64,000 bases of DNA from Escherichia coli (GTDB lineage Bacteria; Pseudomonadota; Gammaproteobacteria; Enterobacterales; Enterobacteriaceae), in NCBI RefSeq assembly GCF_003334355.1, contig NZ_QOWP01000004.1, one strand, 5' to 3'. The position numbers and the translations under genes were made by a program. Shown piece by piece: positions 1,069 to 2,093 of this stretch. Under the pieces are notes generated by a model. That model did not search any database, was not told the DNA's origin, and worked only from the letters and a program-made list of their open reading frames with translations. The first letter of the stretch is position 1. Every line of letters begins with the position of its first letter.

Positions 1069-2093
1069 GTGTCAGATCAGATTATCGCCCGCGTCTCGCA
1101 ATCCCTTGCCAAAGAACAGTCACTGGAAAGTCTGGTCCGACAGCTTCTGGAGATGCTGGAAATGGTCACTGATATGGAATCAACCTACCTGACCAAAGTG
1201 GATGTCGAAGCGCGCCTGCAGCATATTATGTTTGCCCGTAACAGCCAGAAAATGCACATCCCGGAGAATTTTACCGTCTCGTGGGATTACTCGTTATGCA
1301 AACGCGCCATTGATGAAAACTGCTTTTTCAGCGATGAAGTCCCCGACCGTTGGGGTGACTGTATTGCGGCACGCAATCTTGGCATCACCACATTTCTGAG
1401 CACGCCAATTCACTTACCGGATGGATCATTCTATGGCACGCTTTGCGCCGCCAGCAGTGAGAAGCGCCAGTGGAGTGAACGCGCGGAACAGGTTTTACAG
1501 TTATTCGCCGGACTGATTGCACAATATATTCAAAAAGAGGCACTGGTTGAACAGCTGCGCGAAGCCAATGCTGCGCTGATTGCGCAATCGTATACCGACT
1601 CGTTAACCGGCTACCGAATCGGCGGGCGATTTTTGAAAATCTGACGACACTGTTTTCCCTCGCCCGGCATCTTAACCATAAGATAATGATCGCGTTTATC
1701 GATCTGGATAACTTCAAATTAATCAATGATCGTTTTGGTCATAATAGTGGCGATCTGTTTCTCATTCAGGTTGGCGAGCGCCTTAATACGCTCCAGCAAA
1801 ATGGCGAAGTTATTGGTCGTCTCGGCGGTGATGAGTTTTTAGTTGTTTCACTAAACAACGAGAATGCGGATATTTCGTCGCTGCGAGAACGCATTCAGCA
1901 GCAAATACGTGGAGAATATCACTTAGGTGATGTTGATTTGTATTATCCCGGTGCCAGTCTTGGCATAGTAGAAGTCGATCCTGAAACAACCGATGCAGAC
2001 AGTGCCCTGCATGCTGCCGATATTGCGATGTATCAGGAGAAAAAACACAAACAGAAAACACCTTTTGTCGCGCATCCAGCGCTACATTCCTGA
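1069..2093 (+). pseudogene. dgcP: Diguanylate cyclase DgcP (GAF-GGDEF), disrupted by a -1 frameshift near 1609-1613
   Basis: GTG 1069 frame encodes the GAF part (...AQSYTDSLTG) then runs into a stop at 1642-1644; the GGDEF part (LPNRRAIFENL...RLGGDEF...) is in a different frame ending 2093. The two frames overlap by one base at 1611. Confidence 0.8.

Follow-up and report, generated by a model that had tools for sequence, protein, structure and literature searches.

A one-base deletion at codon 181 of dgcP, a lineage-wide and recurrent pseudogene of Escherichia coli

The diguanylate cyclase DgcP (YeaP) has been listed among the cyclases with verified activity (PMC3484386), and it belongs to the more strongly expressed cyclases in growing Escherichia coli K-12 (PMC5635695). 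In the strain CFT073, deletion of yeaP results in less biofilm on glycerol, and complementation is achieved with WspR, a heterologous cyclase (PMC3484386). Among interrupted cyclase genes, the closest described examples are found in Shigella flexneri, in which dgcE, dgcQ, dgcN and dgcM, all GGDEF genes of the E. coli lineage, are interrupted ahead of the catalytic domain while the downstream GGDEF part remains open (PMC11327459), an arrangement that is also found in the dgcP gene described here. The nonsense-interrupted dgcE, dgcQ and dgcN of S. flexneri still raise c-di-GMP when expressed (PMC11327459) and, therefore, the label “pseudogene” is no guarantee of a null phenotype. In Shigella, however, dgcP itself is intact, the lesions are nonsense mutations or an IS insertion, and the residual activity has been measured (PMC11327459), whereas in the present case the loss of activity is predicted from the sequence and the only start available to the catalytic part removes the beginning of the GGDEF fold. 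As for the origin of such lesions, template switching at quasipalindromes is a known source of mutational hotspots in E. coli (PMC7202029).

The dgcP gene considered here lies in the window, i.e., the whole 64-kb stretch of E. coli DNA that was analysed, where the gene order nimT-yeaO-yoaF-dgcP-yoaK-yoaJ-yeaQ is the same as in strain HS. The gene is identified by its match, at 99.9–100% at the DNA level, to the dgcP annotated in 5409 genomes, where it is flanked by the same neighbours. In particular, the dgcP gene of K-12 and HS (yeaP, b1794) occupies the same locus between the same neighbours, its DNA is 99.9% identical to that of the window, its GAF sequence is identical, and the GGDEF motif reads RLGGDEF in both; the difference is that the window is without one G at codon 181, so that the two domains are no longer parts of one polypeptide (Table 1). 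In the intact gene, 1026 nt encode a protein of 341 aa with a GAF domain at residues 17–155 and a GGDEF domain at residues 175–330 (Pfam).

When HS dgcP is aligned to the window, a single gap column, one missing G, is the sole difference over the aligned 122 nt, in agreement with the first-pass annotation, which had claimed that exactly one nucleotide was missing. At the junction, ACC GGG CTA of the intact allele has become ACC GGC TA in the window, and the codons ggc (1609–1611) and cta (1611–1613) have base 1611 in common. The frame opened by GTG 1069 reads ...AQSYTDSLTG YRIGGRFLKI before the premature TGA, 33 nt downstream of the 1-nt gap, and comprises 191 codons, of which the first 181 specify residues of DgcP; the frame from 1611 reads LPNRRAIFENLTTLFSLARHLNHKIMIAFIDLDNF...RLGGDEF... 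up to its stop at 2091–2093. The frameshift as first annotated matches the sequence to the base at every coordinate, and the GAF-only product, then put at about 190 aa, has 191 aa on translation. That the gene is split between GAF and GGDEF was correct for the split but not for its position, since the frame shifts after codon 181, which by Pfam is seven residues inside GGDEF, and the break divides the conserved DSLTG/LPNRR start of this domain. The active-site motif GG(D/E)EF is encoded, as RLGGDEF, only in the shifted frame, and no continuous 341-aa GAF + GGDEF polypeptide can be read through the break after codon 181. A longer upstream ORF of 234 aa starting at TTG 940 was discarded as a listing artefact, the annotated start being GTG 1069 in all genomes.

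Table 1. Features of the interrupted dgcP locus, in window coordinates.
Feature	Position	Strand	Basis or remark
dgcP (yeaP) pseudogene, whole	1069..2093	+	1025 nt vs 1026 nt intact
Mutation site, GG vs GGG of intact alleles (codon 181 GGG, then CTA)	1609..1610	+	alignment to HS
Upstream frame: 181 native residues, 10 missense residues (YRIGGRFLKI), TGA	1069..1644	+	translation, Pfam
Upstream frame, its native residues made up of the GAF domain, the linker and the first 7 GGDEF residues	1069..1644	+	
Premature stop TGA in the shifted frame	1642..1644	+	sequence, translation
Rest of the GGDEF catalytic domain, including RLGGDEF, one base back from the GAF frame	1611..2093	+	translation, Pfam
First ATG/GTG/TTG-initiated ORF of the GGDEF frame, 135 aa	1686..2093	+	ORF listing
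Imperfect inverted repeat, 18 nt, arms TCGTTAACC and GGCTACCGA, 7/9 positions complementary	1600..1617		read from sequence

The consequences for the protein can be predicted from these frames. Intact DgcP is a cytoplasmic GAF-GGDEF diguanylate cyclase; translation of the window allele from GTG 1069 would leave the native frame after Gly181 and end at TGA 1642–1644, and the resulting product would be a 191-aa GAF-only protein without a catalytic domain. The catalytic residues are left in a frame that offers no ATG, GTG or TTG start before ATG 1686. The fragment starting there had been described as lacking the start of the domain, and this is confirmed by Pfam, in which it matches only positions 35–160 of the 161-position GGDEF model, the first ~34 positions being missing. 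Such a fragment would be devoid of the first fifth of the GGDEF fold as well as of the GAF/linker region thought to mediate dimerisation. GGDEF cyclases work as dimers, usually joined through their N-terminal domains. DgcP-dependent c-di-GMP synthesis has most likely been lost in the window strain.

It could be argued that the split gene is still functional, either with a GGDEF fragment that arises from reinitiation at ATG 1686 or occasional ribosomal slippage in the region 1609–1641, or with a free GAF protein that has a role of its own, as for the degenerate cyclases of Shigella. The GGDEF frame is indeed open from 1611 to 2093 with RLGGDEF kept, and ATG 1686 is only 42 nt past the premature stop; the product of this start, however, is the incomplete domain (model positions 35–160 only, without the GAF/linker region) described above, and no Shine-Dalgarno-like sequence is evident in the stretch preceding it (CCATAAGATAATG). 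Slippage is not favoured either, as none of the 0-frame heptamers between 1609 and 1644 is a slippery heptamer of the form X XXY YYZ, and even if the frame were regained in the T run (1629–1634), LPNRRAI would still be replaced and the conserved NRR motif destroyed. On three diverged DNA backgrounds the 191-aa protein has stayed the same, as would be expected if it had a role, yet intact alleles conserve the GAF part as well, and one sublineage of the carriers (E41; P0012) has acquired a further non-synonymous change, R49H. On balance, a functional split gene appears very unlikely, and a loss of DgcP activity is the outcome best borne out by the sequence. As an observation apart, R49H, in the GAF part, is due to the change at 1214 in the E41 sublineage (L008; P0012) and occurs on 18 contigs; it would be compatible with relaxed constraint after inactivation, as a single case.

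Two possibilities had been put forward for the break, a real strain-specific inactivation or an assembly error, and a search was made of 5426 complete E. coli genomes, in 5418 of which megablast found dgcP. A 41-mer across the deletion junction, chosen as intact alleles cannot seed it, is present in exactly seven of the 5426 genomes; the window-type 81-mer, which might miss carriers with nearby SNPs, gave seven exact matches too, and the non-carrier matches to this 81-nt query are 82 nt long against 81 nt in the window. The dgcP ORF is uninterrupted in about 5411 of the 5418 genomes (~99.9%). The carriers come from various sources and countries: an identical 1025-nt dgcP (100% in megablast) is found in AR_0369 (CDC AR bank), MLI023K1 and MLI023K2 (both from human stool, Mali), PSS-12 (human feces, Ecuador) and PRO_A-1412 (human feces, Tanzania), and the deletion junction is also carried by OW1E2 (river water, Switzerland) and E41 (pig, China). 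In all six carriers examined (AR_0369, MLI023K1, PSS-12, PRO_A-1412, OW1E2 and E41), dgcP is labelled by PGAP as a “frameshifted” pseudogene, and the deletion and 191-aa product of these RefSeq pseudogenes are identical to those of the window. The window itself differs from all seven carriers, with private SNPs at 2837, 5963, 21462 and 22835, and the closest of them, PSS-12, is separated from it by 16 SNPs and no indels over 64 kb. Being distinct from every complete carrier, the window represents an additional, eighth independent assembly.

Beyond complete genomes, the exact 191-aa product (P0001) was retrieved from 351 contigs (440 index blocks) of NCBI, ENA and Logan, among them Logan assemblies built from public sequencing runs as well as an ENA metagenome assembly, and it is deposited in GenBank as AVJ77180.1, BEB89521.1 and others. 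The deletion allele is, therefore, already known, both as an annotated pseudogene in RefSeq and as a deposited product in GenBank. All the sequence-level features of a frameshift pseudogene are present, namely an indel whose length is not divisible by three, a premature stop and an ancestral ORF that is uninterrupted. We conclude that the dgcP break is very probably (probability about 0.9) real and heritable, a loss of 1 bp by which GGG of codon 181 becomes GG and the gene a pseudogene. Of the two possibilities initially proposed, a real inactivation is thus supported by the seven complete genomes, the 351 contigs and the carrier PSS-12, while “strain-specific” has to be abandoned, as the lesion is common to a set of phylogroup-A-like strains and has arisen on other backgrounds too.

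An assembly or base-calling error would mean that the isolate truly has GGG and an intact 341-codon dgcP. The loss of 1 bp from a homopolymer is the commonest type of consensus error in long-read data; here, however, the G run is only 3 nt long, the same junction occurs in seven complete genomes from different projects, and the product is found on 351 contigs, Logan assemblies and an ENA metagenome assembly among them. A one-off error would not recur across so many independent assemblies. Neither would a systematic error stay within the ~0.1% of genomes that share a local haplotype, and the absence of the junction from the other ~5411 complete genomes speaks against any error of this type. Moreover, the nearest relative of the window, PSS-12 (16 SNPs in 64 kb), also has the deletion, and no other indel distinguishes the window from it across the 64 kb. 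Altogether, an artefact is very unlikely. The same comparison bears out the earlier statement that the other genes of the window are intact, the two sequences being colinear over their whole length. Only a few short stop-to-stop ORFs, four in number, differ between the window and PSS-12, and the three of them that were checked are all antisense to, or outside, annotated genes; in the PSS-12 counterpart of the 64-kb stretch no other pseudogene was flagged by PGAP.

A one-base difference between two open frames may also bring to mind programmed recoding or phase variation, with the gene being switched, reversibly or under regulation, and not damaged. The loss of the same G on more than one occasion, together with two other disruptive alleles at the same codon (see below), is what such a switch might produce, but the two-frame arrangement is not conserved, ~99.9% of the genomes having an uninterrupted ORF, and it is not accompanied by a slippery heptamer, so that programmed –1 frameshifting is not supported. 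As to phase variation, known contingency tracts consist of about 7 or more repeats, and the tract at this site, which goes from G3 in the intact gene to G2 in the window, is far below this length; the locus has no long simple-sequence tract of the kind that marks phase-variable loci. The interleaving of ON and OFF states among near-identical isolates was compared in 10 genomes. The carriers share a local haplotype and, over 25 kb, fall into a few close groups of haplotypes in which reversion is not apparent, and the intact genomes nearest to them, NH-21 and CT29, are distinguished, within 3.7 kb, by a set of six linked SNPs. Taken as a whole, these observations make a switch very unlikely.

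The inheritance of the deletion is best followed in the sequences around it. Over 3.2 kb around dgcP, the compared carriers have the haplotype of the intact strains HS and KMi029, save for the deletion and one SNP, and they differ from one another by private changes at 1214 in E41, 1281 in OW1E2, 2708 in MLI023K1 and PRO_A, 2740 in AR_0369 and 2837 in the window. A shared haplotype to which each carrier has added private changes fits a deletion that was inherited and whose bearers then diverged. Over 25 kb, the carriers form three groups, which differ almost only in a block at ~7.5–12.5 kb (yeaV-yeaW-yeaX-rnd). NH-21 and CT29, the nearest genomes with an intact gene, show 99.9% identity over 25 kb, and the six linked SNPs that they have of their own within 3.7 kb of dgcP identify them as a sister haplotype rather than as revertants. 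The simplest reading would be that the deletion took place a single time, on a common phylogroup-A-like haplotype, and was passed on to the carriers, the window included; that the carriers are phylogroup-A-like we infer from their closeness to HS, ATCC 8739 and K-12. A literature search for the sequence type of the carriers yielded only a description of antibiotic resistance in OW1E2, in which no type is given.

Several differences among these genomes were recorded in passing. Nearly all the SNPs by which deletion carriers differ from one another fall in the block at 7500–12500 (40 of 50 for MLI023K1 and PRO_A, 54 of 86 for AR_0369), and this cluster looks like an import by recombination; in AR_0369 a second SNP cluster is present at 15–17.5 kb. 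In NH-21 and CT29, yoaC is frameshifted, while the yoaC gene of the window (17711–18010) is intact; the 1-nt difference in yoaC compensates for the G of dgcP, and the 25-kb matches looked indel-free. The yeaR gene, intact in the window (2942–3301), has an IS421 insertion in OW1E2 and E41, with an additional IS1A in E41; the yeaR regions of the OW1E2/E41 type with their insertions correspond to L007:2942-4650 and L008:2942-5322. Furthermore, yeaV is frameshifted in E41, and AR_0369 has a 225-bp deletion at the window equivalent of 6504–6729, in the dmlA-yeaV intergenic region and the start of yeaV, by which the N-terminus of yeaV is lost; the gene is called “incomplete” by PGAP in this strain, and the window is intact at this position.

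The dgcP site mutates recurrently, with loss of the same base on several backgrounds. The identical deletion and the identical 191-aa product are found in L016 and L019, two Logan contigs, which differ from the window (equivalent of 1–3144) by 41 and 35 SNPs, respectively, in 3.1 kb. The differences that flank the deletion site most closely lie at 37 nt on its upstream side and 40 nt on its downstream side, and the deletion junction is absent from the complete genomes closest to L016 and L019 (O157:H7 TR01, A30 and TB06052). On this pattern of flanking SNPs, an independent origin of the deletion in L016 and L019 would be far more likely than the transfer of a tract of <77 bp. Matches of 3576 rather than 3577 nt to L016 and L019 were considered as a source of extra complete-genome carriers, but none of them is among the seven junction hits, and the length difference must lie elsewhere than at the deletion site. 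Combat11I9, one of these genomes, covers the 81-nt query with 82 nt and was rejected as a carrier, the dgcP site being intact.

Two further lesions at the same codon lead to a second truncated product, P0003, of 181 aa ending in ...DSLTG, which was found on 133 contigs. In the first (L020:3017-3092 and L021:3017-3092, equivalent to 1585–1660 of the window), the loss of the same G is combined with a C-to-A change, and the sequence of the closest intact haplotype, A16 (GTTAACCGGGTTACC), is converted into a perfect 14-nt palindrome, GTTAACCGGTTAAC, which contains an in-frame TAA. This palindrome allele was not found among the 5426 complete genomes (best match 97.6%). In the second, an IS1 element is inserted after ACCG, within 3 nt of the deletion of the window (L022:3040-3760 and L023:3040-3069; window ~1607), and the product is the same 181 aa, with DSLTG followed directly by the stop, as that of the palindrome allele. 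Three independent kinds of lesion are, thus, found at codon 181.

Other truncated forms of DgcP exist (the P0004/P0013/P0014 group, in the same protein cluster) and show that disruptions of dgcP are of many kinds across the very large sample of E. coli sequenced so far. A 177-aa form (47 contigs) is consistent with S178 changed from TCG to TAG, a 154-aa form (16 contigs) with Q155 changed from CAA to TAA, and a 214-aa form (15 contigs) ends in MVMTPTY, which we read as the end of an IS1. In two complete genomes, H6 and H7, IS1 is found within dgcP. The 135-aa downstream ORF is present on 967 contigs, above any single upstream allele.

As regards the mutational mechanism of the window deletion, the G was probably lost by replication slippage in the G run, and slippage may have been helped by the imperfect inverted repeat around the site (Table 1). 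The axis of this repeat is the deletion site, with the extra G of the intact allele on the axis, and the loss of the G turns the repeat gapless; it is nonetheless a weak repeat, with no exact run of more than 3 nt. With a 6-nt seed, no inverted repeat was detected at the site by a repeat search, the pairing at 1600–1617 is unused in the DNA fold, and the DNA folds at the site are all weak (z-scores of 0.47 for the intact allele, 0.08 for the deleted allele and –0.58 for L020). With weak folds and no seeded repeat, a hairpin or quasipalindrome mechanism is not claimed for the window allele. In L020 and L021, on the contrary, two adjacent changes both perfect the repeat, which is a signature of quasipalindrome template switching. 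Compared with the mutations associated with this process in E. coli (PMC7202029), the lost G of the window lies likewise on the axis of an imperfect repeat, but the repeat is weak (7/9) and there was a single change. Plain slippage in the G run accounts for the window allele at least as well as template switching does.

A more far-reaching view would be that codon 181/182, with its G run on a quasipalindrome axis, is a hotspot that repeatedly switches DgcP off, that the loss is favoured in some gut or environmental multidrug-resistant lineages, and that the detached GAF and GGDEF pieces retain a residual role as in Shigella; this combination is unlikely. The dgcP deletion is rather an ordinary pseudogene, lineage-wide and recurrent, and not a new mechanism. 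For annotation, this means that the dgcP break of the window is to be kept as a real pseudogene and not “repaired”, and that the strain is to be counted as being without one of the roughly dozen diguanylate cyclases of E. coli. Since deletion of YeaP/DgcP lowers biofilm in CFT073 under some conditions (PMC3484386), a modest change in the regulation of biofilm or curli is possible, whereas the redundancy of the cyclases makes a strong phenotype unlikely. The repeated hits at codon 181 illustrate, on a small scale and in nature, site-specific mutational recurrence, and open no new question.

The genes yoaK and yoaJ lie 33 nt downstream of dgcP, and a polar effect of the frameshift on yoaK/yoaJ would be conceivable. 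Between the stop of dgcP and yoaK, at 2100–2127, there is a sigma-70-like match, composed of TTCACA, a 16-nt spacer and TAACAT, with a TG upstream; this is no more than a match to the consensus, in a region that has no excess of such matches over shuffled sequence. If this promoter-like match were functional, yoaK and yoaJ would be independent of read-through from the interrupted dgcP.
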